From a virus: 12,236 nt of DNA. The notes below the pieces were generated by a model, which was given only the letters and a program-made list of their open reading frames with translations, searched no databases and was not told where the DNA came from. The position numbers were made by a program, and so were the translations under genes. Numbering within the stretch: the first letter of the stretch is position 1; the number at the start of each line of letters is the position of its first letter. The DNA is taken from the UHGV virus genome UHGV-1337774; one strand, given 5' to 3'. Shown here in pieces: positions 1 through 12,236 of the stretch.

Positions 1-2
1 AT

Positions 3-875
3 ATCTTCCCTCATATCGGTTCGTCCGACATTCGCCAGCTCAAAACCAGCCACCTATTAGCCCCGATTAAAAAAGTTGATGCCAGTGGTAAACACGACGT
101 CGCTCAGCGCCTACAACAGCGCGTCACGGCCATTATGCGGTATGCGGTACAGAACGATTACATCGACTCAAATCCAGCAAGTGACATGGCCGGTGCGTTA
201 TCGACAACCAAAGCACGACACTATCCAGCTTTACCCTCTAACCGTTTCCCTGAGTTTCTTGCACGTCTTGCTGCATATCGTGGCCGTTTAATGACACGGA
301 TTGCAGTCGAGCTTTCCTTACTAACTTTTGTGCGTTCCAGTGAGTTGCGTTTCGCTCGCTGGGATGAATTCGACTTCGATAAATCTCTTTGGCGTATACC
401 GGCAAAACGAGAAGAAATTAAAGGTGTCCGTTACTCGTACCGTGGGATGAAGATGAAAGAGGTGCATATCGTTCCGCTTAGTCGGCAGGCGATGATTTTG
501 TTAGAGCAGCTTAAGCAGATTAGTGGTGATAAAGAGCTACTGTTTCCGGGAGATCATGACGCAACTAAAGTTATGAGTGAAAACACGGTTAACAGTGCTT
601 TGCGCACAATGGGGTATGACACAAAAACCGAAGTTTGCGGGCATGGATTCAGAACTATGGCGCGCGGTGCTTTGGGCGAATCAGGGTTGTGGAGTGATGA
701 CGCGATAGAACGTCAGCTAAGCCACTCTGAGCGTAATAGCGTTAGGGCTGCTTATATTCATACTTCAGAGCATTTGGATGAGCGTCGTTTAATGGTTCAG
801 TGGTGGGCCGATTATCTTGATGCTAACACTCAGGAATATATAACCCCCTACGACTTTGCAAAAAAAACTATCTAG
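3..875 (+). CDS. int: Tyrosine recombinase/integrase, P4 family, C-terminal ~291 aa (5' end lies outside the window)
   Basis: The frame is open from position 3 with no upstream stop, so the 135 start in the ORF track is internal. Translation (IFPHIGSSDIRQLKTSHLLAPIKKV ... HGFRTMARGALGESGLWSDDAIERQLSH ... RAAYIH) resembles the catalytic C-terminal half of P4-type integrases. Stop TAG at 873-875. Confidence 0.85.
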   Translation: MFPHIGSSDIRQLKTSHLLAPIKKVDASGKHDVAQRLQQRVTAIMRYAVQNDYIDSNPASDMAGALSTTKARHYPALPSNRFPEFLARLAAYRGRLMTRIAVELSLLTFVRSSELRFARWDEFDFDKSLWRIPAKREEIKGVRYSYRGMKMKEVHIVPLSRQAMILLEQLKQISGDKELLFPGDHDATKVMSENTVNSALRTMGYDTKTEVCGHGFRTMARGALGESGLWSDDAIERQLSHSERNSVRAAYIHTSEHLDERRLMVQWWADYLDANTQEYITPYDFAKKTI

Positions 876-891
876 CTTTAAAAATTTTAAA

Positions 892-910
892 GTAGGGTCA
901 AAGACCCTAC
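892..910. terminator. Candidate bidirectional hairpin terminator between convergent int and HerA-like genes
   Basis: Inverted repeat GTAGGGTC-aaa-GACCCTAC (892-910) inside the 38-nt gap between the int stop (875) and the HerA stop (914). A/T-rich runs flank it on both sides (ctttaaaaattttaaa upstream, taattatttttt downstream). Confidence 0.45.
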
Positions 911-913
911 TAA

Positions 914-2635
914 TTATTTTTTCCATATATTGCAATAGCCTGGAGAATCAGATTCTGGTGGATATATTGGCTTATCTATCTGGATGGTCATAGGAATAGG
1001 GAAGTCAACCCCTACAAGAGCAACTTCACCTTGTTTGAGACTTGGTAGAAAAGATGCTGCAGATTTATCAATTTCACTGCATGCACGCTCAACGACTTCT
1101 CGATCTCGGTCGTTTGTTAAGCGATGAACCAATAAGGTTCCAATTTGACTAAGCACACCTTCAGTGATATCTCTGGGTCTTTGAGTTGTTAAGCATATAT
1201 TAAGGCCATATTTCCTGCCTTCTTTTGCAATCATCTCAAAAGCGTCAAGTTTAATTGCATGATCTTCAGAACCAACCCGTTTGCCAAGGAAGTTATGGGC
1301 TTCATCAACAATAACTAACAGCGGTCTTGTTCTGAATTTTTCAAGCCTAGCTAAAGTTAAAAGTTTTCTGCCGATTACATTGGCTAAAATTTCTCTAGCA
1401 TAAAACTCATAGCTAACATCACTTAGGCATAACCTTAGGACTCGTTTATCAGATTGTAAAAAAGTTTCTAATATTTCACCTAGTGTGGATATATCCTCGT
1501 TACTATTAAAAACAGACCTTAACGAGTTGGCATACGTTACTGCTTGAATTCTGGTTAACAAAGATGAGCAATAGCTTAAGTCTTGAGTTGCAGCGTTTCC
1601 CCAAGTATTATCTCCATTATCGTAACAACATTCTTGTACAATCTGTTTTATAAGTTTTGTTATATCAAATGGTTGTGATGGATTATCAACAAGTTTAGAG
1701 TTGTCTCCAGTATTCATTGCGCGTCGATAATCTGTTTTAGGTTGATTGATTTTTTTTAAAATACCATCGGTTGCTATCCTAGGTTCTAAAGCTACTAATC
1801 TAAGGCTTTTTATCGCTTCTTTTAGCTTAGGACCCTGTACTTTTCCAGAAGGATCGAACATGGCAATAAAGTCTGACTCAACAAAGTCGGTAGGTGGAAT
1901 TCTAAATTCTAAAGAATTTATGTTTTTATTTATTGGGGCACCTAAATGGTAATGTAAACAATAATCAGATTTAAACGATCTATACTCACTGGTTGCATCA
2001 ATTATTATAGTTTTAGAGTTTTCGTAATTCGAACACTCTTCAATTAACTTGGAAGTTGTCCAACTTTTTCCACCGCCTGTAGCTCCTAAGATAGCACAAT
2101 GACGACCGAAGAGTTTATCAGGTTCAACAGTTACTATACTTGTTGCCCCTCCAGATATAATGCCTAATACAATACCTATTCTTTCTTCCTCGTTATCTTT
2201 AATTCCTTTATTAATTAATTCTGGTATTAAAGAAATAAAATCTAAGGGAGCAGAATAAACTCGATCTCCTAATCGAGGATATGATTTGATTCCTGAATCA
2301 ATTCTAAAATTTGAAGGATCAATAGTTCCAAGAAGTTGTATAATGCCGATAGCATCAACTTTGAAGTTTCCTTGAGACCCGACAGATATTTCACCTCTAT
2401 CTCGCTCTGGTAATTTAACCTCTATTAAACGGCCAAGAACAATAGATTGTTGTCCTTCTATTAATAATATTTCACCAACTTCTCCTTTTCCATATCTACA
2501 ACCTTCTATATATGTTCCGCTGAGTTCCCCTGCATAGATTAAATTTGCTCTAACTGTTTGAGCAAAAATTGATGAGACTACTCCAACCTTAAGGTCGCCC
2601 CTCAAAATACCAAGCTGTAGTGTTGTATTAATCAT
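914..2635 (-). CDS. herA: HerA-like (DUF87/FtsK-HerA superfamily) P-loop ATPase, partner of a SIR2-like protein
   Basis: 573 aa ORF. Walker A GATGGGKS (in ILGATGGGKSWTTSKL) and Walker B-like LLVIVDEAH. Its ATG overlaps the upstream gene's TGA (ATGA at 2632-2635), indicating an operon. Confidence 0.75.
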   Translation of the reverse strand: MINTTLQLGILRGDLKVGVVSSIFAQTVRANLIYAGELSGTYIEGCRYGKGEVGEILLIEGQQSIVLGRLIEVKLPERDRGEISVGSQGNFKVDAIGIIQLLGTIDPSNFRIDSGIKSYPRLGDRVYSAPLDFISLIPELINKGIKDNEEERIGIVLGIISGGATSIVTVEPDKLFGRHCAILGATGGGKSWTTSKLIEECSNYENSKTIIIDATSEYRSFKSDYCLHYHLGAPINKNINSLEFRIPPTDFVESDFIAMFDPSGKVQGPKLKEAIKSLRLVALEPRIATDGILKKINQPKTDYRRAMNTGDNSKLVDNPSQPFDITKLIKQIVQECCYDNGDNTWGNAATQDLSYCSSLLTRIQAVTYANSLRSVFNSNEDISTLGEILETFLQSDKRVLRLCLSDVSYEFYAREILANVIGRKLLTLARLEKFRTRPLLVIVDEAHNFLGKRVGSEDHAIKLDAFEMIAKEGRKYGLNICLTTQRPRDITEGVLSQIGTLLVHRLTNDRDREVVERACSEIDKSAASFLPSLKQGEVALVGVDFPIPMTIQIDKPIYPPESDSPGYCNIWKK

Positions 2636-3930
2636 AATTGATTGTTAACTCCTACTTGTTTTATTACCTTAGCCAACTGTTCTGCTGGGGTTAATGCTTT
2701 AAGATTGGGAACTAATTTAACAAAATCACTGAAAGATGCATTTATGAAGTGAATGTCATAACCTGATAGTGAGAGTTGTTTTAGTAAATCCCAATATTTA
2801 CTAGAACCGTCCCCCCCTTTATTCCGAATATGAGTTGCACATTTGAAATCTACTATAATCAACCTCATGCTTGGATTGGATTTTATTGCTGAGTAAATTG
2901 GTTCAGAAAGATGGTCATCATTGAAACCAAATCCAGATATAACTAAACAGTTATTTCTTTTTCTCAAGAAATCTAACAATCTTGAAAGTAATTCTAAGTG
3001 AGGTTGAATAAAGGCTTGCTGATATTTACCTTTCGCTGGATATATTAGACATGCGTTTGTTGCTGTTGGTTGGCTGGATTCATATATTTGCCCATCCTTT
3101 CTTATCCAACTTACAGAACCGTGGAGTTTAAATAACTGGAATACGCCCTCTACAAACTCATGCTCGTTTTCATCTCTTTTAACAACATCGTAGTTAAAAT
3201 ATTTACCATCGAATCTGCGAACTCCTGTATATGAAAGACCATCAACTACCATCATTCCTAATTCAGAAGCAGCTGTTTCAAAGGCTAAATCATAGTTAGT
3301 TGTGAAAACTTTTAGTCTAGGATCTCTGACTCTCCTCCTCCCCATTTTTTGTAATAAATTGATGTAAGCTGAAAGATCACAGTTGCCATCATCAATAAAT
3401 GAGCGACATTTGTCTAAAATAATTGTTTTAACTTTATTTAAAAAATTCAACACTTCTTCATCATCATGAAATGCTAAATATGCTTCACAATTAGAAAGAA
3501 AGTGTTCTATGTTAGGATACTCTCGCTCTTTATATTTTACTTTATCACAAACAATTTGAGCATCAGGTTTTAATTGACCATCCTCGTTTATAGAAGATTC
3601 ACTCCACATTGCACACTTCCAGAGATCCCACATGCTTGGCCCTCCAACGTCCCCAAGCGAAGTACCACTCCCAGCGAAGAATGCAAGATTTGGGAATTGT
3701 AATGATTTTAGTAATAGTTCGTTTATATATGCCTGATTGTCTTTCAACTCCTTCTTTTCACCATCAGTAAGAGATTGTGCTGGAGAAATAGAATCTCCTG
3801 ACTCTTCTAAACTTTCATTCGTTATGTAGTCTCGCCAATAAATAAACGATTTACTATCTAATGCTTTCCAGTCGTTACTACCGGGTTTTAAAAATGAGAT
3901 GTATCCGTCCGGATTTGTAGTCATAATCAT
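2632..3930 (-). CDS. SIR2-like (SIR2_2 family) putative NAD+-consuming defence effector
   Basis: 432 aa ORF. Rossmann-like FFAGSGTS motif near the N-terminus, TTNYD motif and a downstream KLHGSVSW motif (candidate catalytic Asn/His as in defence SIR2 domains such as ThsA), plus GFGFNDDH near the C-terminus. Stop overlaps the HerA start. Confidence 0.7.
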   Translation of the reverse strand: MIMTTNPDGYISFLKPGSNDWKALDSKSFIYWRDYITNESLEESGDSISPAQSLTDGEKKELKDNQAYINELLLKSLQFPNLAFFAGSGTSLGDVGGPSMWDLWKCAMWSESSINEDGQLKPDAQIVCDKVKYKEREYPNIEHFLSNCEAYLAFHDDEEVLNFLNKVKTIILDKCRSFIDDGNCDLSAYINLLQKMGRRRVRDPRLKVFTTNYDLAFETAASELGMMVVDGLSYTGVRRFDGKYFNYDVVKRDENEHEFVEGVFQLFKLHGSVSWIRKDGQIYESSQPTATNACLIYPAKGKYQQAFIQPHLELLSRLLDFLRKRNNCLVISGFGFNDDHLSEPIYSAIKSNPSMRLIIVDFKCATHIRNKGGDGSSKYWDLLKQLSLSGYDIHFINASFSDFVKLVPNLKALTPAEQLAKVIKQVGVNNQL

Positions 3931-4412
3931 TATCCATTGATGTCATTAAGAGTTTGTTCCCAATAATTTACTACACCACGGCTGGAAGAAAAAGTAATCA
4001 CAATCACTATCTTTGACTACAGTGCGCACAATTATCTTCCCGCCACGCTTGCCCACCTTTAATACACGTGCATGTTTGATCTGAGGTCTTACGATATCTT
4101 GTACAGGTAGAGGTTATAAGAGTGAGAACCATGCTCACTAAGGATGACAAATCTATAAATATTACCCGTAGCGCCGCTCAGTTTACGTGTGCTGCATCGA
4201 TACACTGCAGTTCTTGAATCATTGCGGAGATTTCAGCAACTGCCAGCCAGTATCTCGTCAATCATTGTCACCGCCTGCGCGGCTGAGTTTGCTATTTTCT
4301 CCCTTAGCGCGAGCAGCCCCGCCCGCCTGCCCGCTTCGCTTAACAGACTGGTTTTCATGCACCCCGTAAATCGTCTCAGAAGCCACCACACAAGGGCTTT
4401 CGCGTCAAAAAT

Positions 4413-4443
4413 GGCGCATGAGACTCATGCGTTTTCATGCGCC
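4413..4443. repeat. Perfect palindrome with an extra direct half-site (GGCGCATGAG a CTCATGCG ttt TCATGCGCC)
   Basis: CGCATGAG (4415-4422) is the exact reverse complement of CTCATGCG (4424-4431). A second copy, TCATGCGCC (4435-4443), is the reverse complement of GGCGCATGA (4413-4421). Read directly from the sequence. Confidence 0.5.
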
Positions 4444-4488
4444 ATAGATATGCACTCATACGCTCTCAGGCCAGCCAGGGAAAAGGCG

Positions 4489-4513
4489 TAAAAAATCCCG
4501 GTACTGGACCGGG
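4489..4513 (-). terminator. Rho-independent terminator of the sid-psu-delta late operon
   Basis: On the minus strand, 23 nt after the delta stop (4537-4539), a hairpin TCCCGGT-ccagt-ACCGGGA is followed by ATTTTTTAC (plus-strand stems cccggt 4497-4502 and accggg 4508-4513, A-run 4490-4496). Confidence 0.6.
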
Positions 4514-4536
4514 ACTTCGTGGTCGTATTTTGCTAA

Positions 4537-4809
4537 TCAGACAGGAATTTGCTGACGGTTTGACAGCTTTGATGCGGAGCCATAGCGATTGAGAGTTTGC
4601 TGTTGTTTTTCCGGTATTTTTGCTTTGTCTGATTCCTGTTCATTGCACCGAGGCTTCATAATTATCGTATCCACGCTTTCCAGTGCGGTAAATGTGCAGG
4701 AACATTCCAGATTCTGGCACTGATACCATGAGCGTTTAACCGACGGAGCTTCATAGGCGCTGGTTCTGGCGTGAGCGACCGCGCCACATTCAGGACACTT
4801 CAGGGCCAT
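4537..4809 (-). CDS. delta: Ogr/Delta-family zinc-finger late transcription activator (single domain, ~90 aa)
   Basis: MALKCPECGAVAHARTSAYEAPSVKRSWYQCQNLECSCTF has the C-x2-C-x22-C-x4-C spacing and the AHARTS/YxQCxNxxCS motifs of P2 Ogr and P4 Delta. Start chosen at ATG 4807-4809, 1 nt after the upstream gene's stop at 4811-4813; the longer track ORF (to 4911) would overlap that gene. Confidence 0.8.
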   Translation of the reverse strand: MALKCPECGAVAHARTSAYEAPSVKRSWYQCQNLECSCTFTALESVDTIIMKPRCNEQESDKAKIPEKQQQTLNRYGSASKLSNRQQIPV

Positions 4810-4810
4810 A

Positions 4811-5365
4811 TCAGCACACTCCTTTTTCATTAAGTCGGTTAAGGCGGGCCAGGAAAACTTTATGTTGTGCCGGGGTGAAACTGGCTGAAGCATCAGCGCG
4901 CATTGATGCATCCACCGTTAATCCGGTTTCGTCGATAATGCTCTTATATGCTGCTGAAATTACCGGAGTACGGACTTCCGTTTGTCGGGCTACAGCGGTT
5001 CGTAATATTTTCATTGCCGCCTCAAGCCCGTATGGTGCACAAAGAAAAGGAGCCAGAGCGTCAGTGAGTGCATCACCATGCTCGCTCATGAAGTTTTCAG
5101 TTGCGCTTGTAACACAGCTTTCCAGCACAATCTGGTGAGCATAAAGACCATCCCGGGCGGCACAGTTAATCTGCCATTCGAGGAGTGCAAGACGCTCACG
5201 AAGATCCTCAAGTTGGCTGGCATATGCTGCGGGTTTTTCTTCAGTATCCAGCAAAGCAGCCAGACGAAGCTGGCTGGTACTTTGCACATTACGTAGTGTC
5301 AGCCAGCTTTTTATTGCCGCGCGGTAATCGTTGAGAGCTTCCTGAGTAATGGTTCCGGTATTCAT
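4811..5365 (-). CDS. psu: Psu-like (polarity suppression / capsid decoration) protein
   Basis: 184 aa; size and position fit P4 Psu. Recalled similarity in blocks such as HGDALTDALAP and the C-terminal FTPAQ motif. ATG at 5363-5365 overlaps the upstream TGA (ATGA coupling). The family call rests on memory and synteny. Confidence 0.55.
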   Translation of the reverse strand: MNTGTITQEALNDYRAAIKSWLTLRNVQSTSQLRLAALLDTEEKPAAYASQLEDLRERLALLEWQINCAARDGLYAHQIVLESCVTSATENFMSEHGDALTDALAPFLCAPYGLEAAMKILRTAVARQTEVRTPVISAAYKSIIDETGLTVDASMRADASASFTPAQHKVFLARLNRLNEKGVC

Positions 5366-6114
5366 TCCTTCTCGCCCCCTTTAGCCATGTCACGCTGTTT
5401 AAGCATCCGGGAACGTGCTGCAGGGCTGGGTGATTGTCTGGCATCCTGTATGGCTTTATCGTCCGCATAAATGCTGATCCCCGGCAGGGCAATATCATCC
5501 GTTGAAGATACGTTACAGAACAGTGCCGGAGTGGTGAGTTGCTCGCTGATAAATTGCTTCAGCACACTTTCGGGGTCGTTTACGGTATGAACTACACCGA
5601 TAACAGAAGATGCGCTTCGGCCCAGAGTCATTTTCAGCAGTCCAAGGATCTGAATAAGTTTCTGGCCGTGTTCCTTCATAAACTCATTCCAGAGCCACAC
5701 TGCATGAGTTTCAATCAGGTGATTATGTTCGCTGATGTAGCGGTTTGCAGCATCCGCAGTTTTCCATGGCAGGAATTCATTTTCTGCAGCCTGAGCAGCC
5801 AGCAAATCTTCGAACTCATCTAGTGTTTCGCGTCCGAGGGCGATTTCTGCCCGCAGTTTTTTCATTCGTGGCGTCATATTCCCCTGATTCTCACGAAACA
5901 GGTTTCGCCATTCATCATTAAGCGCCTGCGTCTCCGTTTTTGTATCTTCCTGACGTTTACGGATAGTTTCAGTCATTGCAGCAGCTTCGGTTTGTTTTCG
6001 CCGTTCTTCCTGCCAGACAGCTTTTGCTGCCTTAACTTTTTCCACCGCTTCGCGAATTTTCGGCGGGAGGGTGGGGGTAATGTTTGCATCAGAGATCTGG
6101 TTAACAGTTGTCAT
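5362..6114 (-). CDS. sid: Sid-like (external scaffold / capsid size determination) protein, first gene of the late operon
   Basis: 250 aa from ATG 6112-6114, which has a GGAG Shine-Dalgarno 5 nt upstream; the track's 6147 start is a TTG with no RBS. Helix-rich, charged N-terminus; size and position match P4 sid. Product call is from synteny only. Confidence 0.45.
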   Translation of the reverse strand: MTTVNQISDANITPTLPPKIREAVEKVKAAKAVWQEERRKQTEAAAMTETIRKRQEDTKTETQALNDEWRNLFRENQGNMTPRMKKLRAEIALGRETLDEFEDLLAAQAAENEFLPWKTADAANRYISEHNHLIETHAVWLWNEFMKEHGQKLIQILGLLKMTLGRSASSVIGVVHTVNDPESVLKQFISEQLTTPALFCNVSSTDDIALPGISIYADDKAIQDARQSPSPAARSRMLKQRDMAKGGEKE

Positions 6115-6140
6115 GGCTGCTCCGGTAGTGTTTTGTTGTT

Positions 6141-6207
6141 GTGTCAATTGTGCCGGGGTCCATACAAGCGCACTACCGAGGAGGATTGTGTCAGTGACTG
6201 AACAATG
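6141..6207 (-). promoter_or_regulatory. Candidate Delta/Ogr-activated late promoter (Psid-like) with a TGT-N12-ACA dyad
   Basis: TGT (6187-6189) - 12 nt - ACA (6202-6204) inside the near-palindrome TTGTgtcagtgactgaACAA, centred about 85 nt upstream of the sid ATG. P2/P4 late promoters carry this dyad at about -55. The -10 element could not be pinned down. Confidence 0.4.
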
Positions 6208-6270
6208 ACCTTGGTCTGGCTAGCCAGAGAAAGGTGTCATGTCTGATCTACACGCTTCCTTTAATACATA

Positions 6271-6480
6271 CTATTCACTACTGTTCACTTCAATAAAAAT
6301 ATAGTAAATACATGTGGTTAAGTGGTGTAGTGTTTTAATTAAAGTGATCATCTACTGTTCATGACTGTTCACAGAGATAAAATTAAACATATATTTCTTT
6401 TTCATATAAGTCGCGATATTTATTTCAGTTTATTACTGGATCTTTTCTCCTCACCAATATTCACCAGTATTCAATACATA
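6271..6480. repeat. Iteron-like direct repeats with a TTCAC core at 10-bp spacing (candidate alpha-binding ori-like region)
   Basis: Three clusters: ctaTTCACTactgTTCACTtca (6271-6292), tACTGTTCAtgACTGTTCAcag (6353-6374), and TCACCAATAT TCACCAGTAT TCAATACATA (6451-6480). P4 alpha protein is reported to bind TGTTCACC-type iterons in ori and crr. Confidence 0.4.
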
Positions 6481-7019
6481 TTCTATGTAAAGAATAAAAG
6501 ATGTCTTATATCTGTTTAATAATTGAACATTCAACCTCCCTGCACTCAGTTGCATTTCAGGAAAATATTCATAAAAATGAATTTGTCTGATGTTCATTAA
6601 ACACATTCGGATACATGCGGAAGTAAGATGGTAATTTAATTTCTTTAATCATCAGATTTATTGATACATATGGTGAGCTGTTTATTTTTGGCCGTTTTTG
6701 GCTCTTTTATTAATCAGGTGTTGTCTTAGTGCTTATGATGTAAAGCCCTGAATGATATGGGCTGGTTCAGATTTGAGCTGTGATCCTGCCTAGTGTAATA
6801 GACTTTTTTATTATTGATGCTCCTTATTATATTCCATAAAGGAATTGTTTGTTTTTGTTCGTTTCATACGGTTTTTAGCTGTTTTATTTTTTGAGAAATC
6901 AACATTTCACACAAAATAAATAAAGCATGCGCGAGCCGCTTATATAAACATAATAAGGAGCTACCTGAATCCGCATGGAATTGCCCGGACTGTTGTAAAC
7001 ATATTAGAGAGGTAGCCAG

Positions 7020-7280
7020 ATGAATAGTATTTCCGTTTCCACCCCGGCACCAGCTGCTCCGGTGCTCCCGGTTCCGGCTCAGCAGGAGCGCTTCATACGA
7101 TTACCTGAAGTGATGCACCTTTGCGGGCTATCCCGTTCAACCATCTACGACCTTATCAGCCGCGATGCCTTCCCGCAGCAGATATCCCTGGGTGGAAAAA
7201 ATGTGGCTTGGGTACAGTCGGAGGTCAGTGCATGGATGGCGGCGCGAATTGCTGCCCGCGAGCAAGGAGGCCATGCGTGA
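7020..7280 (+). CDS. alpA: AlpA/Vis-family helix-turn-helix regulator/excisionase
   Basis: 86 aa; [50 protein letters not shown] matches the AlpA family signature. AGAGAGG Shine-Dalgarno 7 nt before ATG 7020. Divergent from the sid operon, as for P4 vis. Confidence 0.85.
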
Positions 7281-7373
7281 AACTTGCTTTGCAGTCTCAT
7301 CTCCTTTTTTCTGGCTTGCGTCCTGATATCTTTTCCAGGTATAGTTTTCCCGCTGCCGCAAAATCGGCTGCCG

Positions 7374-7623
7374 GGCGTAGGAACCCGAGTTACTTATTGG
7401 CGACACCAGACGCGCCGTGCGTCTTTTTTTACGTCGTTGCTCAGGCACACCCATTTTTCGGGCTGCGGTGCTTATACCTTAGCCCCTTTCAGATAATGGT
7501 GGTCCGGGCGGGGCAGCCTTCGGGCTGGCCGGTTTCCAATAAGGCCGGTATTCCTACCCCCGTTCGGGTCACCACCCATGAGCGTAGGAACTCCGGTGGT
7601 GGCATTTACCGCTACTTATTGGA
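7374..7623 (+). promoter_or_regulatory. Candidate P4-type RNA immunity / attenuation region (CI-RNA-like): direct repeats flanking a partly complementary segment
   Basis: Direct repeats GCGTAGGAAC...TACTTATTGG at 7374-7399 and 7583-7623. Between them, 7536-7569 carries CCAATAAG and TTCCTAC, complementary to the TTATTGG and GTAGGAA blocks. Also a UUCG-type hairpin CAGCC-TTCG-GGCTG (7514-7526) and CACCACC/GGTGGTG pairing (7571-7577 with 7596-7602). Complementarity is patchy, not collinear. Confidence 0.3.
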
Positions 7624-7633
7624 GGTTGCCCTT

Positions 7634-7825
7634 ATGGCTACGATCCTCGCCCCGTCACATCCTCAATTTATATTTGTTTTTGCCGCCGTTCGTCGTGCAG
7701 AACGTAAACCACGTATCAGTATGCTGCGTATCATCGCCAGCAATGAGCATCATGCACGTCTTTCACTGGTCCATGAGTATGTGCTTTGTCTTGCTGCTCG
7801 CCTGCCTGTCCGGGAGGTGATCTAA
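7634..7825 (+). CDS. Hypothetical small protein (63 aa), first of three coupled genes upstream of alpha
   Basis: ATG 7634 with a GGAGG Shine-Dalgarno 8 nt upstream. Stop TAA 7823-7825 overlaps the next ATG (TAATG). It is the in-frame 3' part of the long 7121-7825 track ORF, which I do not believe as a whole. Confidence 0.4.
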
Positions 7826-8049
7826 TGAATCACGCCGCAATCTCTTATGACGATATTCTCCGCCTGAAGCATCTTCGTAACGTGGGAGAGTTTGTCACTG
7901 GAATGGCTGTTCTTCAGGATTGCTACGAAAAACCTGCCAGTGCTCAATGTGAACAACTGGTTTCCCTGATTTATCTGATGACAGAGCAGCTTGATGGCGT
8001 GGTACAGCGTTGCCAGGATGACCTCATGAACATGGAGGTGGTGCAATGA
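7825..8049 (+). CDS. Hypothetical small protein (74 aa); position equivalent to P4 eta/epsilon
   Basis: ATG 7825 preceded by GGGAGG (7812-7817). Its stop overlaps the next start (ATGA at 8046-8049). Start is internal to the 7786 track ORF. Confidence 0.5.
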
Positions 8050-8369
8050 AATCACGCACTCTTTCCCTTTCACTTCGGGTAGCGTTGTATCGCCGCGCGG
8101 TAGCCTGCGCCTGGTTGAGTGCCTGCTATCAGCAAAACCGCCATCTGCAGCTCACTCTGGATGAAATTGAAACCGCTATTGCCCGTGAGCTTGAAGGATT
8201 TTATCTGCGACAGCACGGGCAAACAAAAGGCATGGAAATCGCCTGCGCCCTGCTTTCAGACCTGATGGAATACGGCCCTCTAATGTCCTGTCCCGCACTC
8301 TCCCAGCTCGGAATAGCCGTAATGGATGAGTTATGCGTCCGTCACATCAAAAAGCCGGTTTTACACTGA
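8046..8369 (+). CDS. Hypothetical protein (107 aa) immediately upstream of alpha
   Basis: ATG 8046 overlaps the previous stop. Ends TGA 8367-8369, 14 nt before the alpha start. No recognisable motif. Confidence 0.55.
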
Positions 8370-8383
8370 GGGAGAACTGCGTC

Positions 8384-10717
8384 ATGTCAGGAATGAAAGT
8401 CAGTCAGGCCGTGAAGGCTGCCCGCGGTCACTGGGCTCAGATTCTGCCAGCGCTGGGCGTGAATATATTGAAAAATCGCCATCAGCCTTGCCCGGTCTGT
8501 GGCGGTAAAGATCGTTTTCGCTTCGACGATCAGGAAGGACGCGGAACATGGTTCTGCAATCAGTGCGGAGCCGGGGATGGTTTAGCGCTTGTCACCAGGG
8601 CACTGAATGTGGATATCAGTGAAGCAGCTGACAGGATACATGGACTGACACATGATCTGTCTATAGTTAATTCCGAGGTCAGGACGTTAACCGCCGATAC
8701 CGATAGCGGGAAAGATGCAGCGGCAGCACTTGCCGCGCGACTGCTGCAAGCCTCGCGTGAATCTGCCGGAAACACTTATCTTACACATAAAGGTTTCCCG
8801 GAGCATATTTGCCATGAGCTGACTTCAGCTCATAAGGCCGGTGGTGTGATGTTCCGCCCCGGTGATTTGATCGTCCCACTCTATAACGCTGACGGGGAGC
8901 TGGTGAATATTCAGCTTATCAGTGGCAATGGTAGCAAGTGTTTTCTTAAAGGAGGTCAGGTTAAGGAGGCCTATCATCTGATAGAAGGGGGCGGGAGTTC
9001 TGTAAGAAGGATTTGGATTGCGGAAGGTTACGCCACGGCGCTTACCATTCATTATTTGACAGGAGAAGCCGTCATGGTGGCATTTTCGTCGGTCAACTTT
9101 CTTTCTCTGAGCAGCGTTGCCCATAATAAGTATCCTGGATATCAGTTAATTATTGCAGCGGACCGCGATCTGAATGGTTCAGGCCAGAACAGGGCTGAAA
9201 CTGCTGCAAAAGCGAGTCAGTGTGACATTGTGCTGCCACCGGTTTTTGGTGACTGGAATGATGCGCTTACCCAATACGGAGAGGAATCCACCCGGAAGGC
9301 AATTCTTGAGGCTTTGAAGCCACATAACGCCAGTCCTTTCGACACAATGAGTGAAGCAGAATTCACAGCGATGAGTGTCAGCGAAAAAGCTCAGAGGGTT
9401 CGGGAGCATTACAGGGATGCACTGGCGGTTGATCCGAACGGGCAGCTTTTATCCCGCTACGAGTCTGGAGCGTGGAAAGTTATTTCTCAGTCAGATTTTG
9501 CCCGAGATGTCGCAGCCCTTTTCCAGCGCCTCGGGGCACCGTTTTCCTCAGGAAAAATTGCCTCACTGGTGGAAACATTAAAGTTAATTGTTCCGCAGCA
9601 GCAAAATCCGTCACGTCATCTGATTGGTTTTCGTAATGGCGTTCTCGATACGCGAACAGGGCTTTTTAGTCCGCACTGTAAAGAGAACTGGCTGCGTACC
9701 CTGTGTGAAGTCGATTTCACGCCACCGGTAAAGGGGGAAACGCTTGAAACTCATGCCCCGGCATTCTGGCGTTGGCTGGACCGGGCCGCCGGACACAAGC
9801 CAGCAAAACGCGACATTATTCTTGCAGCGTTATTTATGGTGCTGGCGAACCGTTATGACTGGCAGCTCTTTCTGGAAGTGACTGGCCCTGGTGGAAGTGG
9901 CAAAAGTATTCTGGCTGAAATTGCGACCATGCTTGCTGGAGAGGATAACGCCACCTCTGCGACCATTGAAACGCTGGAGTCCCCGCGAGAACGTGCGGCT
10001 CTGATAGGTTTTTCTCTTATTCGCCTGCCTGATCAGGAGAAGTGGAGCGGCGACGGCGCCGGGCTTAAGGCTATAACTGGTGGCGATGCAGTATCTGTGG
10101 ACCCCAAATATCAGAATGCTTATTCAACACATATTCCGGCGGTTATCTTGGCCGTAAATAATAATCCTATGCGCTTCACTGATCGCAGTGGTGGTGTGTC
10201 CCGCAGGAGAGTTATTCTGCATTTTCCTGAGCAGATAGCACCGGAAGAACGCGATCCGCAGTTGAAAGATAAAATTGCACGAGAACTGGCTGTGATTGTT
10301 CGTCAGCTCATGCAGCGTTTCAGCGATCCGATGAGCGCCAGAACATTGCTTCAGTCGCAGCAGAATTCTGATGAGGCTCTCACCATCAAGCGTGATGCTG
10401 ATCCAGCATTTGATTTTTGTGGCTACCTTGAGGCATTACCTGACACCAACGGCATGTTTATGGGGAACGCCAATATTGTCCCGCGCCAGCCACGTACGTA
10501 CCTTTACCATGCCTATCTCGTATACATGGAGGCTAATGGCTTTAAAAATACCCTTAGCCTGACAATGTTTGGCAAAGGGCTACCAGTTATGCTGAAGGAA
10601 TACGGGCTAAATTATGAGAAGCGGCGAACTAATCAGGGAATGCAGACTAACCTCACTTTAAAAGAGGAAAGTAATGCAGACTGGCTTCCCAAGTGTGATG
10701 AGCCAACAATCAAATAA
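8384..10717 (+). CDS. alpha: P4 alpha-type bifunctional primase-helicase (zinc-binding primase + TOPRIM + SF3/D5-like helicase)
   Basis: Zinc-binding CPVCGGKDRFRFDDQEGRGTWFCNQCG, TOPRIM-like IWIAEGYATALT, Walker A GPGGSGKS, about 777 aa. Start placed at ATG 8384 with a GAGGGAGAA Shine-Dalgarno; the track's 8333 start would overlap the upstream gene. Stop TAA 10715-10717. Confidence 0.9.
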   Translation: MSGMKVSQAVKAARGHWAQILPALGVNILKNRHQPCPVCGGKDRFRFDDQEGRGTWFCNQCGAGDGLALVTRALNVDISEAADRIHGLTHDLSIVNSEVRTLTADTDSGKDAAAALAARLLQASRESAGNTYLTHKGFPEHICHELTSAHKAGGVMFRPGDLIVPLYNADGELVNIQLISGNGSKCFLKGGQVKEAYHLIEGGGSSVRRIWIAEGYATALTIHYLTGEAVMVAFSSVNFLSLSSVAHNKYPGYQLIIAADRDLNGSGQNRAETAAKASQCDIVLPPVFGDWNDALTQYGEESTRKAILEALKPHNASPFDTMSEAEFTAMSVSEKAQRVREHYRDALAVDPNGQLLSRYESGAWKVISQSDFARDVAALFQRLGAPFSSGKIASLVETLKLIVPQQQNPSRHLIGFRNGVLDTRTGLFSPHCKENWLRTLCEVDFTPPVKGETLETHAPAFWRWLDRAAGHKPAKRDIILAALFMVLANRYDWQLFLEVTGPGGSGKSILAEIATMLAGEDNATSATIETLESPRERAALIGFSLIRLPDQEKWSGDGAGLKAITGGDAVSVDPKYQNAYSTHIPAVILAVNNNPMRFTDRSGGVSRRRVILHFPEQIAPEERDPQLKDKIARELAVIVRQLMQRFSDPMSARTLLQSQQNSDEALTIKRDADPAFDFCGYLEALPDTNGMFMGNANIVPRQPRTYLYHAYLVYMEANGFKNTLSLTMFGKGLPVMLKEYGLNYEKRRTNQGMQTNLTLKEESNADWLPKCDEPTIK

Positions 10718-10725
10718 TTACAACT

Positions 10726-10752
10726 AACCCGGCTGATGCCGGGTTTCTTATT
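10726..10752 (+). terminator. Rho-independent terminator after alpha
   Basis: AACCCGGC-tgat-GCCGGGTT hairpin (10726-10745) followed by TCTTATT, starting 9 nt after the alpha stop. Confidence 0.55.
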
Positions 10753-10777
10753 GGAAACGTACGAATGTAGAGATAGC

Positions 10778-10990
10778 AGTTCACTCTTCACCTAACTGTT
10801 AATACATAACCAATTGATATATAAATTAAAAGTTGCAGAGTGAATAGTGTGCATGGTTTTGCGAAAAAAAAGTATTTTTTGTTGAGTCAAGTCCCGGTTT
10901 GGATCCGTTTAACGGAACCTAACTGGATTGACTATTTCTTCGATAATTTTTGGATAAATAATTAACAAAAATCAAAATGTGAACAGCGAA
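10778..10990. repeat. Scattered TTCAC-type motifs in both orientations (candidate crr-like cis replication region)
   Basis: aGTTCACtcTTCACCtaactgtt (10778-10800), gagTGAAtag (10839-10848), and aaaatGTGAACAgcg (10975-10989, TGTTCAC on the minus strand). This lies about 4.5 kb from the iteron cluster at 6271-6480, the ori-crr spacing I recall for P4. Weaker than the upstream cluster. Confidence 0.25.
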
Positions 10991-11068
10991 TGGAGGGGGC
11001 ACAAAAGGGGGCATAATTGAATTAATTATTAATAAAATCCATTTTTTACAACAATTTAAATGAATATG

Positions 11069-11088
11069 CGAGTCCGGCCTTCGCACCA
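11069..11088 (+). other. att core: 20-nt copy of a tRNA-Leu (leuX-type) 3' end, candidate attR
   Basis: CGAGTCCGGCCTTCGCACCA matches the 3' end of E. coli leuX as I recall it (…GTTCGAGTCCGGCCTTCGGCACCA), apart from one missing G. The upstream sequence is AT-rich and shows no D or anticodon arm, so this is a fragment, not a tRNA gene. Confidence 0.55.
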
Positions 11089-11277
11089 TACAAAGCTTTT
11101 TGCAAGTCTACTAACGTCTACTTTAGTCCATAAAAACAGTAAGTTAGGCAGGTTTCTGGCTTTTCTTAGTCTGTACGCGTCTACTCAATTCCTTGAACAT
11201 ATACCAACTGATGATGGTATAACTGATAGTATTCTCGGTTCGATTGATTTTGGTACCAACACTGGAGGTATCAACTG

Positions 11278-11530
11278 ATGGCTTTCACCGATATCAAAGT
11301 TAGGACTACCAAGCCCTCCGACAAACCCTTCAAACTCACAGATGGGTAGGGTATGCACCTGCTGATCAATCCCAATGGTTCAAAATACTGGCGACTTCAA
11401 TACCGTTTCGAGGGGGGCAACAGAAAGTTTCAGCATTGGGTGTTTATCCATTGGTCTCTCTTGGTGAAGCCGCAGGAAGCTAGATGAAGCCAAAAAGTTG
11501 GTATTTGATGGTATCGACCCTTCTGAAAAG
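11278..11530 (+). pseudogene. Decayed P4-family integrase, N-terminal fragment with a premature stop and at least two frameshifts
   Basis: GGAGG Shine-Dalgarno then ATG 11278: MAFTDIKVRTTKPSDKPFKLTDG*GMHLLINPNGSKYWRLQYRFEGG (in-frame TAG at 11347-11349). Downstream, integrase-like ALGVYPLVSLGEA and RRKLDEAKKLVFDGIDPSEKKK appear in two other frames. It sits about 190 nt after the tRNA 3'-end repeat, as intB does after leuX in E. coli K-12. Confidence 0.6.
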
Positions 11531-12236
11531 AAAAAGTGTTAGGTAAGCGAAGCGAGTTGTGCCGGACGGGTTTAGCGACATCCAGGCGAAGCATTTTTGT
11601 AGTATTAAATTCAGCGATCAAATCTTTAGCTGCATTCCCAACTATTATTATGTTTCCACCTATCACGACAGGAGCTTTTTTATGTTGAGAACTGGCCTAA
11701 ACGCATAGAGAACGGCACCAGCAAAACTCTTTCCCCTGCGAATTTTTTGCATCCCTTTCAATGTTTATCACCGACAGATCGAGTTGCTGACAGAAGGGTA
11801 TCTCTCAGTACTTTTATTCTTTTTTGCGCCGTATAAATTTCGGTGAGGGTAAAGGAGCTGTTGTGTGATTTGGTATCGAGATGCTGAATAAGTTTATGTA
11901 GATTCTGAGCTTGCTTTTGTAAGCTCTTTCCAAACAGTTAGATTTATTTCAGAAATTTTGGGTGGGAGATACTTCAATGCTGACATACGTATCCAAACAG
12001 TACGGTTGAGATCTTTTCGTAAGCCATCAACGTAGGAGAATTCGGCATCTCATTTAATCTGATACTAATACAATGATTACGTGTCTGTTGGGAGGGTAAT
12101 TTAGCACGAGTGAAATTTTCATAGCTACAGCTTCTAAATGACTTGATGTTATTAAGACTATGATTTCTATCATTCATATGAACTGATCCTACCCACGTAA
12201 TATGGACACAGGCCTAAGCGAGGTTCTTGTTTTCAA

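Follow-up and report, generated by a model that had tools for sequence, protein, structure and literature searches.

Sequence analysis of UHGV-1337774 points to a P4-family phage satellite inserted in the leuX gene of Escherichia coli

The virus genome UHGV-1337774 was analysed as a stretch of 12,236 nucleotides (nt), here called the window. Positions 1-11089 of the window can be assigned with high confidence to a P4-family phage satellite of ~11.64 kb, inserted by a P4-type integrase into the 3′ end of leuX (tRNA-Leu) in E. coli, and equipped with a P4 replication module, a helper-exploitation operon, a cos-like site, an RNA immunity switch and a SIR2-HerA cargo. The left 0.55 kb of the satellite (attL, the tRNA gene and the 5′ end of int) lies outside the window. 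From left to right, the layout is a partial int gene, HerA and SIR2, the cos-like site, delta, psu, sid, the Psid dyads, ori iterons, vis/alpA, eta/kil with the CI (C4) RNA, an open reading frame (ORF) of 74 amino acids (aa), cnr, alpha, a terminator, a crr-like region, arm repeats and the attR core (Table 1). The class is already known, i.e. leuX P4-like satellites, with a published hotspot that has SIR2 and HerA among its occupants and with near-identical copies in RefSeq. P4-like satellites occur in a large fraction of E. coli genomes. The analysis adds no new biology, its main value being context, in that it fixes the identity of each part of the window.

Identity and class of the element

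The ORF map of the window comprises three abutting minus-strand genes (4537-6114), an interval of 905 nt without genes (6115-7019) and five plus-strand ORFs (7020-10717), followed by ~350 nt of non-coding sequence (10718-11069) and then a 20-nt copy of a tRNA 3′ end. A preliminary description, made from the sequence alone, had proposed that the window is almost entirely one P4-like satellite. This proposal is borne out, in that the core matches P4 (reference genome for all comparisons, NC_001609) both in pairwise BLASTP and in Pfam and PHROG profile searches; failure of the core proteins to match P4-family profiles had been named beforehand as grounds for abandoning it.

The class definition used is that of a seven-component P4-like satellite, with components <10 genes apart (Moura de Sousa & Rocha 2021, PMC8628076). 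An integrase, adjacent Psu, Delta and Sid (4537-6114), AlpA/Vis and Alpha are all present, and are co-localised within 11.1 kb in P4 order save for an exchange of psu and delta. The 'epsilon/Ash' component is represented by an Ash profile match of 114 bits at 7277-7825, while P4 epsilon (NP_042039) gives no tblastn match in the window at an expectation value (E) < 1. The hallmarks of P4 itself are also found, i.e. a CI RNA with seqA and seqC targets (C4 and isrK models scoring above gathering) and type-I iterons at both ori and crr, as is the hallmark of integration at leuX, a core repeat accompanied by arm-type sites. The earlier proposal of a P4-like order and orientation is thus correct for orientation, which is that of integrated P4, and requires amendment for order, the window having sid-psu-delta where P4 has sid-delta-psu; close relatives examined keep the order of the window.

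The likeness to P4 extends to the leuX site with its core and arm repeats, the order and orientation of int, vis, eta/kil with CI RNA, cnr and alpha, a late operon facing int, the Psid distances, the presence of TRTTCAC at ori and crr, the position of the cos-like site between late operon and cargo, and the length (11.64 versus 11.62 kb). By contrast, the cargo is SIR2-HerA in the window and gop-beta-cII in P4, psu and delta are swapped, Delta is a single 90-aa unit (about half of the 166 aa in P4), epsilon and orf151 are lacking (the 74-aa ORF is found there), the 120-bp duplication in crr is missing, the cos end differs at 7/19 positions, and the late-operon proteins are just 23-43% identical. 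In a tblastn search with all P4 proteins, orf151, gop, beta and cII had no homologue in the window.

The element is not confined to a single strain. Window positions 1 to 11087-11089 are present in 20 complete E. coli genomes at 99.6-99.9% identity, the sources of the strains being human, dog, pig, frog and wastewater. Measured from att core to att core, the element is 11,637 bp in strain XDL, within 13 bp of P4 (11,624 bp). The core ORFs are complete and without interruption; third-codon-position substitutions are in excess in vis, kil, the 74-aa ORF and cnr, a sign of purifying selection. In comparison with published P4-like satellites with the psu-int hotspot (PMC9122126; PMC8628076), the window has in common the hotspot position by cos, the SIR2 and HerA occupant, the seven marker components ('epsilon/Ash' by its profile), the cnr and 75-aa families before alpha and the variability between sid and alpA; nothing substantial sets it apart, and it is one instance of the class.

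Integration at the 3′ end of leuX

The int gene is cut by the window edge and is not truncated in the genome; the full coding sequence (CDS), of 419 aa, is annotated in strain XDL, which is 99.9% identical over window positions 1-11088. It had been suggested from the truncated int that a tRNA gene and attL lie just upstream, the lack of a tRNA gene or att repeat there being regarded as a refutation. Both are present in XDL, where a tRNA-Leu gene, with a core at its 3′ end as at window positions 11070-11089, ends 163 nt upstream of the int start, i.e. 548 nt to the left of position 1. YA-1 has the same layout, and leuX lies ~160 nt upstream of int in the genomes examined. Left of the window, the integration model predicts the 5′ end of int, P′ arm repeats (TTGGGGGCATAATTGGGGGCAT) and an intact leuX ending in GAGTCCGGCCTTCGGCACCA.

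At the right end, the tRNA-Leu 3′-end repeat that had been noticed earlier is real, though only a tRNA fragment, no complete tRNA gene being detected in the window by ARAGORN; it aligns to the leuX 3′ end as well as to the core of P4 attP. In a four-way alignment of the att sites there is a common core, GAGTCCGGCCTTCGGCACCAT, of 20-21 nt, and the flanks are swapped exactly as site-specific recombination predicts. The core reads CTTCGCACCA in attR (window 11070-11089; 14070-14089 in L001), and CTTCGGCACCA in attL, in attB of ATCC 8739 and in P4 attP. The arm-type repeats are 54 nt from the core both in the window and in P4.

E. coli ATCC 8739, in which an intact leuX is followed directly by the sequence from window position 11090 onward, represents the empty site, because the DNA beyond 11089 and that after its leuX are 100% identical. 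The right boundary first proposed, 11088, is real to within a few bases: the 20 near-identical copies stop at 11087-11089, and the match to ATCC 8739 begins at 11069. The downstream flank of the XDL copy differs from that of the window, and the occurrence of a near-identical element beside different downstream flanks in different strains fits recent site-specific insertion.

Table 1. Features of the window, with coordinates, strand (a point where none applies) and the evidence for each
Feature	Coordinates	Strand	Evidence
int, 3′ two-thirds of P4-type tyrosine integrase	1..875 (frame from position 3, stop codon 873-875)	+	95% aa identity to P4 Int residues 134-414 (281 aligned); Pfam Phage_integrase, Phage_int_M
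Variable cargo slot (defence hotspot), int stop to cos	876..4300	.	Homology of relatives breaks on both sides; different cargo in YA-1; GC shift
HerA-type ATPase, 573 aa	914..2635	-	PADLOC HerA PDLC04103, 551 bits, full length; Pfam DUF87, HerA_C
SIR2-family protein, 432 aa	2632..3930	-	PADLOC SIR2 PDLC04075, 273 bits, full length; Pfam SIR2_2
cos-like packaging site	4290..4360	-	Aligns with cos junctions of P4 and P2, and with intergenic DNA next to the portal gene in a Burkholderia P2-like phage
Candidate terminator of sid-psu-delta operon, hairpin and T-run directly after delta stop	4490..4513	-	CCCGG-TCCAGTA-CCGGG then ATTTTTT, read from sequence
delta, 90 aa, single Ogr/Delta zinc-finger late-gene activator	4537..4809	-	Pfam Ogr_Delta, 61.5 bits; BLASTP to P4, E 2e-10
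psu, 184 aa, polarity suppression and capsid decoration	4811..5365	-	Pfam Psu, 122 bits, full length; 27% identity to P4 Psu, E 3e-12
sid, 250 aa, capsid size-determination scaffold	5362..6114	-	phrog_6165, 306 bits; 23% identity to P4 Sid, E 4e-7
Candidate Delta/Ogr-activated Psid, two TGT-N12-ACA dyads	6149-6166, 6187-6204	.	Spacing to sid as in P4
ori-like cluster of type-I iterons TRTTCAC (6272, 6282, 6366, 6458)	6272..6464	+	Motif enrichment
AT-rich (31% GC) non-coding variable segment, ~420 nt	6477..6895	.	Differs among otherwise homologous satellites
vis/alpA, 86 aa, excisionase and regulator	7020..7280	+	Pfam Phage_AlpA, 71.8 bits; 64% identity to P4 ORF88
eta-like long ORF, 182 aa	7277..7825	+	Pfam Phage_ASH (PF10554), 114 bits; 63% identity to old P4 'cI 137 aa' ORF
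Leader RNA (Rfam isrK), ending in hairpin 7408-7424 and T-run (terminator-like)	7352..7429	+	72.1 bits, gathering 50
CI / C4-type antisense immunity RNA	7492..7579	+	Rfam C4 RF01695, 83.4 bits, gathering 45, E 1.3e-15, full model
Downstream antisense targets, 7584-7596 and 7615-7623	7584..7623	+	Inverted repeats with CI RNA: 13 nt (85% complementary), 9 nt (100%)
kil/icd-like gene, 63 aa, nested in frame in eta	7634..7825	+	NCBIfam phage_ICD_like, 67.7 bits (cutoff 25), long-ORF residues 131-178
74-aa ORF	7825..8049	+	phrog_10110, 138.8 bits; strong coding signature
cnr (DUF5375), 107 aa, copy-number regulator homologue	8046..8369	+	Pfam DUF5375, 162.9 bits; 70% identity to P4 ORF106
alpha primase-helicase, 777 aa	8384..10717	+	73% identity over 773 aa to P4 alpha; Pfam Zn_Ribbon_Prim, Toprim_3, D5_N, DUF5906, Pox_D5
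Terminator-like hairpin after alpha	10726..10745	+	8-bp stem, 6 GC pairs, T-rich tail; position of annotated P4 t-alpha
crr-like region, iterons at 10840 and 10979	10780..10985	.	TRTTCAC; weak translated similarity to P4 crr region (P4p05), E 9e-6
Integrase arm-type repeats (AGGGGGCACAA / AGGGGGCATAA)	10994..11016	+	Direct repeat; nearly identical to annotated P4 attP arm repeats GGGGGCACAAAAGGGGGCATA
attR core, copy of leuX 3′ end minus one G (GAGTCCGGCCTTCGCACCAT)	11070..11089	+	Four-way alignment of attB (ATCC 8739), attR (window), attL (XDL), attP (P4)
Chromosomal flank outside satellite: decayed second P4-type integrase, relaxase remnant, IS3 from 12184	11090..12236	+	Identical to ATCC 8739 post-leuX region

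Late operon and cos-like site

The operon of sid, psu and delta begins with sid, as in P4, and the sid product has, in addition to its PHROG match, weak similarity to the Psu family in Pfam. The delta product matches both halves of the 166-aa P4 Delta, with 43% and 26% identity. The hairpin with a T-run that follows delta is a candidate terminator for the operon, its assignment following from position and sequence.

Upstream of sid, the centres of the two TGT-N12-ACA dyads lie 43.5 and 81.5 nt from the ATG, and these distances are identical in P4 (dyads at 9531-9548 and 9493-9510, sid ATG at 9583; L002), even though the region is without detectable DNA similarity to P4. The number of TGT-N12-ACA matches in the whole window is not significant (5 versus 3.1 expected); it is the matching geometry that makes the dyads candidates for a Psid activated by Delta or Ogr. 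No dyad with the exact TGT-N12-ACA pattern that might mark a late left promoter (PLL) was found near vis.

The cos-like site lies on the minus strand, where it has blocks in common with P2 and P4 (4360->4290), i.e. GTGCATnAAAACC, AAGCG and AGGCGGG, with a CGCGC-type block downstream that is less conserved. The core aligning with the 19-nt cohesive end of P2/P4 runs from ~4331->4313 (GGGCAGGCGGGCGGGGCTG). This core is invariant in satellites that are just 74% identical overall, and homology stops right after it.

Searches for a phage with this variant were made at several lengths. A blastn search of window positions 4270-4420 against the phage collection gave no match; an exact 22-mer of the cos region was found in IMG/VR only in two copies of the same satellite; and a 17-mer retrieved from IMG/VR other P4-like satellites, together with chance matches inside coding regions of high-GC phages. 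Scanning of genome contigs with the 17-mer gave, among the matches listed, only chance ones in high-GC genomes. With a 61-nt blastn query at E <= 10, matches were obtained to cos regions in P2-like phages of Burkholderia and Klebsiella, but the end in the Klebsiella phage is of P2 type and differs from the window variant. In Burkholderia phage vB_PL2b (L046, 93-1203), which is P2-like, a toxin-antitoxin pair is located between the cos-like region and the portal gene, where P2 has its cos-proximal defence hotspot.

Immunity region

The preliminary description counted three small genes after vis. Three ORFs are indeed present (7277-7825, 7825-8049 and 8046-8369), but the first is for the most part an RNA immunity region of the eta/kil type. 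The GTG start of eta overlaps the vis stop (GTGA). Within eta, the leader RNA holds the upstream antisense targets, 7372-7383 and 7393-7400, and is followed by the CI RNA, the segments of which at 7535-7543 and 7545-7562 are complementary both to this upstream pair (7393-7400 and 7372-7383, respectively) and to the downstream pair (7615-7623 and 7584-7596). The downstream target at 7615-7623 abuts a GGAGG Shine-Dalgarno sequence (7622-7626), which lies 7 nt upstream of the ATG of the kil/icd-like gene at 7634, and the Icd-like domain maps only downstream of this ATG. Together with a c4-a1b1 match at 7339-7391, the isrK and C4 matches form a set of three Rfam matches that the P4 cI locus also gives, in the same order.

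Substitution patterns divide the long ORF at the kil start. Over 7277-7633 (eta codons 1-119) there is no codon-position bias, the counts being 34/26/25 against six homologues (p = 0.42) and 43/40/37 against P4 (p = 0.8). A third-position excess is found, on the other hand, in 7634-7825, in vis, in the 74-aa ORF and in cnr (p from 0.004 to 8e-9; p = 0.004 and 0.0003 for 7634-7825). The long eta frame is open in all six homologues, P4 included. According to PMC10111431, citing Forti et al. 1999, translation of eta from the late promoter is needed to prevent termination, the CI RNA comes from a promoter within eta, and the short nested product is Kil. Because of the RNA matches, the lack of codon bias, the open frame and this published eta/kil model, the GC-rich 7277-7633 is to be described as an RNA immunity locus overlaid by a read-through ORF, and not as a conventional protein-coding stretch.

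The arrangement can be compared with the c4-icd-ant system of P1, as well as with P4 CI immunity. In each the antisense RNA is processed from the transcript that it controls, two segments pair with upstream and downstream targets, and the downstream target is at the ribosome-binding site of an icd/kil-type gene. As in P4 and unlike in P1, the locus of the window is inside a long eta-type ORF, the start of which overlaps the stop codon of an alpA homologue, and it has replication genes downstream instead of an antirepressor. A further difference is that the Rfam model for the upstream target, c4-a1b1, scores just under gathering (43.8 versus 46.7 bits). On the matter of nomenclature, the Ash profile serves in the literature as the marker for 'epsilon', yet it tags the eta/immunity region and not the epsilon protein; RefSeq names the CDS 'Icd-like'.

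Variable slot and SIR2-HerA cargo

The interval between the int stop and cos has a GC content of 34%, compared with ~50% in the core. Relatives lose their homology to the window at 869, towards int; near cos the edge is at 4284-4316, with points of resumption at 4294-4316. The cargo block (876-4200) was found in 22 of the 5,426 genomes searched, versus 227 with the backbone (4201-11068) at at least 80% coverage and 1,529 with part of it; in YA-1, where the element is also at leuX, the backbone is 93% identical, and an S8 peptidase and an AAA ATPase are at the cargo position. These distributions support the variable slot of the preliminary description, but not its being the only one, there being a second, smaller variable segment at 6477-6895 (see below). 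A psu-int hotspot next to cos has been described in P4-like satellites, in 26% of the E. coli genomes analysed, and SIR2 with HerA is named among its known systems (Rousset et al. 2022, PMC9122126). Rather than a separate island, the low-GC block (914-3930) represents defence cargo in a known hotspot.

As in the SIR2-HerA anti-phage systems covered by PADLOC and by solved structures (8j4u, 8wiv), the two genes are adjacent in an operon, on one strand and with a 4-nt overlap of SIR2 stop and HerA start; both products have full-length PADLOC matches. The GSGTS, TTNYD and KLHGS motifs of SIR2 align to the solved SIR2 of the SIR2-HerA complex 8j4u, its NAD-binding and catalytic motifs being intact, and HerA has a Walker A motif (GATGGGKS, residues 184-191) and a Walker B motif (LVIVDE, residues 440-445). 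Against the solved chains, SIR2 aligns with E 2e-20, and HerA by its C-terminal part only, with E 1e-31. The pair differs from the known systems in falling below the NCBIfam equivalog cutoffs, and is a distant SIR2-HerA subtype, covered by the PADLOC models but by neither NCBIfam equivalog model.

The small ORFs at 4007-4150, 4233-4391 and 4189-4491 gave no family match. A 41-aa hypothetical protein recorded by RefSeq (WP_001402809.1 in XDL; 4233-4358, minus strand) spans the cos-like site, is likewise without a family match and is probably not a gene.

Replication genes, origin and the interval between sid and vis

The 74-aa ORF is located where P4 has epsilon and orf151, and has no match in Pfam or NCBIfam. 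A family of ~75 aa between 'epsilon' and alpha has been reported in 61% of P4-like elements, being absent from P4, and the cnr family is found there in 90% (PMC8628076); the 74-aa ORF fits the former family.

The preliminary description also indicated an iteron and promoter region upstream of vis, in agreement with the Psid dyads at P4 spacing and with an enrichment of TRTTCAC, of which the window has 9 copies against 3.15 expected, a number reached in 0/200 shuffles. The same motif marks the annotated ori and crr of P4, with fewer copies in the window than in P4.

Between ori and vis, the satellites L004, L010 and L024 align with the window on both sides of the AT-rich segment, all ending at 6476 and resuming at 6859-6896, and L038 aligns to 6385 and resumes at 6812. 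In place of 6477-6895, these four have 398-439 nt of DNA unrelated to the window but homologous from one to another. With its sharp left border at 6476, the segment is a second small variable module, in agreement with the additional variability reported for P4-like satellites between sid and alpA (PMC8628076). The sid-vis intergenic region has no ORF of >52 aa and no PHROG match, nor is any ORF conserved in the variable segment. A weak match there to the Rfam tsr24 model (22.7 bits, E 0.12) was dismissed as chance. A sigma-70 scan returned fewer matches than shuffled sequences and was not taken as evidence.

Alternative explanations and a proposed life cycle

Several points weigh against the assignment of positions 1-11089 to a P4-family satellite, or against the functions that such an assignment implies. 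The attR core is one G short of those of attL, attB and P4 attP, a deletion common to the XDL copy, and this could reduce excision. The cohesive-end segment matches P2/P4 at only 12/19 positions, no helper phage with the cos variant of the window was found in the collections searched, and tblastn detected no homologue of the P4 helper-derepressor epsilon in the window. With respect to the cargo, SIR2 scores 123 bits against a cutoff of 500 for the NCBIfam SIR2_antiphage equivalog, HerA 150 against 800 for HerA_antiphage, and the matches to solved SIR2-HerA complexes are only at E 1e-20 to 1e-31. Because these scores are far below the equivalog cutoffs and the structure matches are distant, the activity of SIR2 and HerA is only assumed, from family membership. 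Excision, replication and packaging of the satellite are presumed by analogy with P4.

Some of the same points, i.e. the deletion in attR (shared with XDL), the lack of an epsilon homologue, and a cos end unlike P2/P4 with no matching helper in the collections searched, along with the clear decay of the neighbouring leuX island in the window, are those that favour an immobile P4-derived island, kept by the host as a fixed leuX defence locus. That explanation is nevertheless very unlikely, since the core genes are all full length, with vis, kil, the 74-aa ORF and cnr under purifying selection, the length departs from that of P4 by just 13 bp, divergent satellites all keep the cos core unchanged, and copies 99.6-99.9% identical are found beside differing downstream flanks, fitting recent insertion. 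A generic tRNA-linked island, or a satellite of another type (one like a phage-inducible chromosomal island, or a primase-carrying integrative element), having only integrase and primase in common with P4, is improbable in the extreme. P4-type integrases and D5/P4-type primases do occur in many unrelated islands, the integrase remnant at 11278-11521 being an example, but in the window the P4-specific Sid, Psu, Delta, Cnr, CI RNA with its targets, type-I iterons, P2-type cos-like site and Psid dyads are all there, in the P4 arrangement.

If the element is a P4-family satellite, as is preferred here, its mobility and helper range may be like those known from P4 biology. In the prophage state, the CI RNA would terminate transcription of the left operon. 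Through Ogr or Delta, a P2-like helper would turn on the late left promoter as well as sid-psu-delta; with eta translated, the terminator would be read through, and alpha would replicate the element. Sid would redirect helper capsids to small size, with the helper terminase cutting at cos. SIR2-HerA may meanwhile deplete NAD+ or damage DNA and so shield host and satellite against other phages. It is also conceivable, but rather doubtful, that this satellite sub-lineage exploits helpers in ways unlike P4, as it has its own variant of the cos cohesive end (GGGCAGGCGGGCGGGGCTG) and no epsilon, the 74-aa ORF possibly being a new helper-activation factor. For annotators, the points that may be of use are that the Pfam Ash marker tags the eta/CI region, that a cos-core variant exists in this sub-lineage, and that the attR core has a 1-nt deletion.

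Right flank

From 11090 onward, the window is chromosome, with an older, decayed leuX island. Similarity to the N-terminal region of P4 Int is broken in this flank, with pieces at 11278-11406 and 11468-11521 by tblastn. In ATCC 8739, the IS3 element is followed directly by fimG and fimH.

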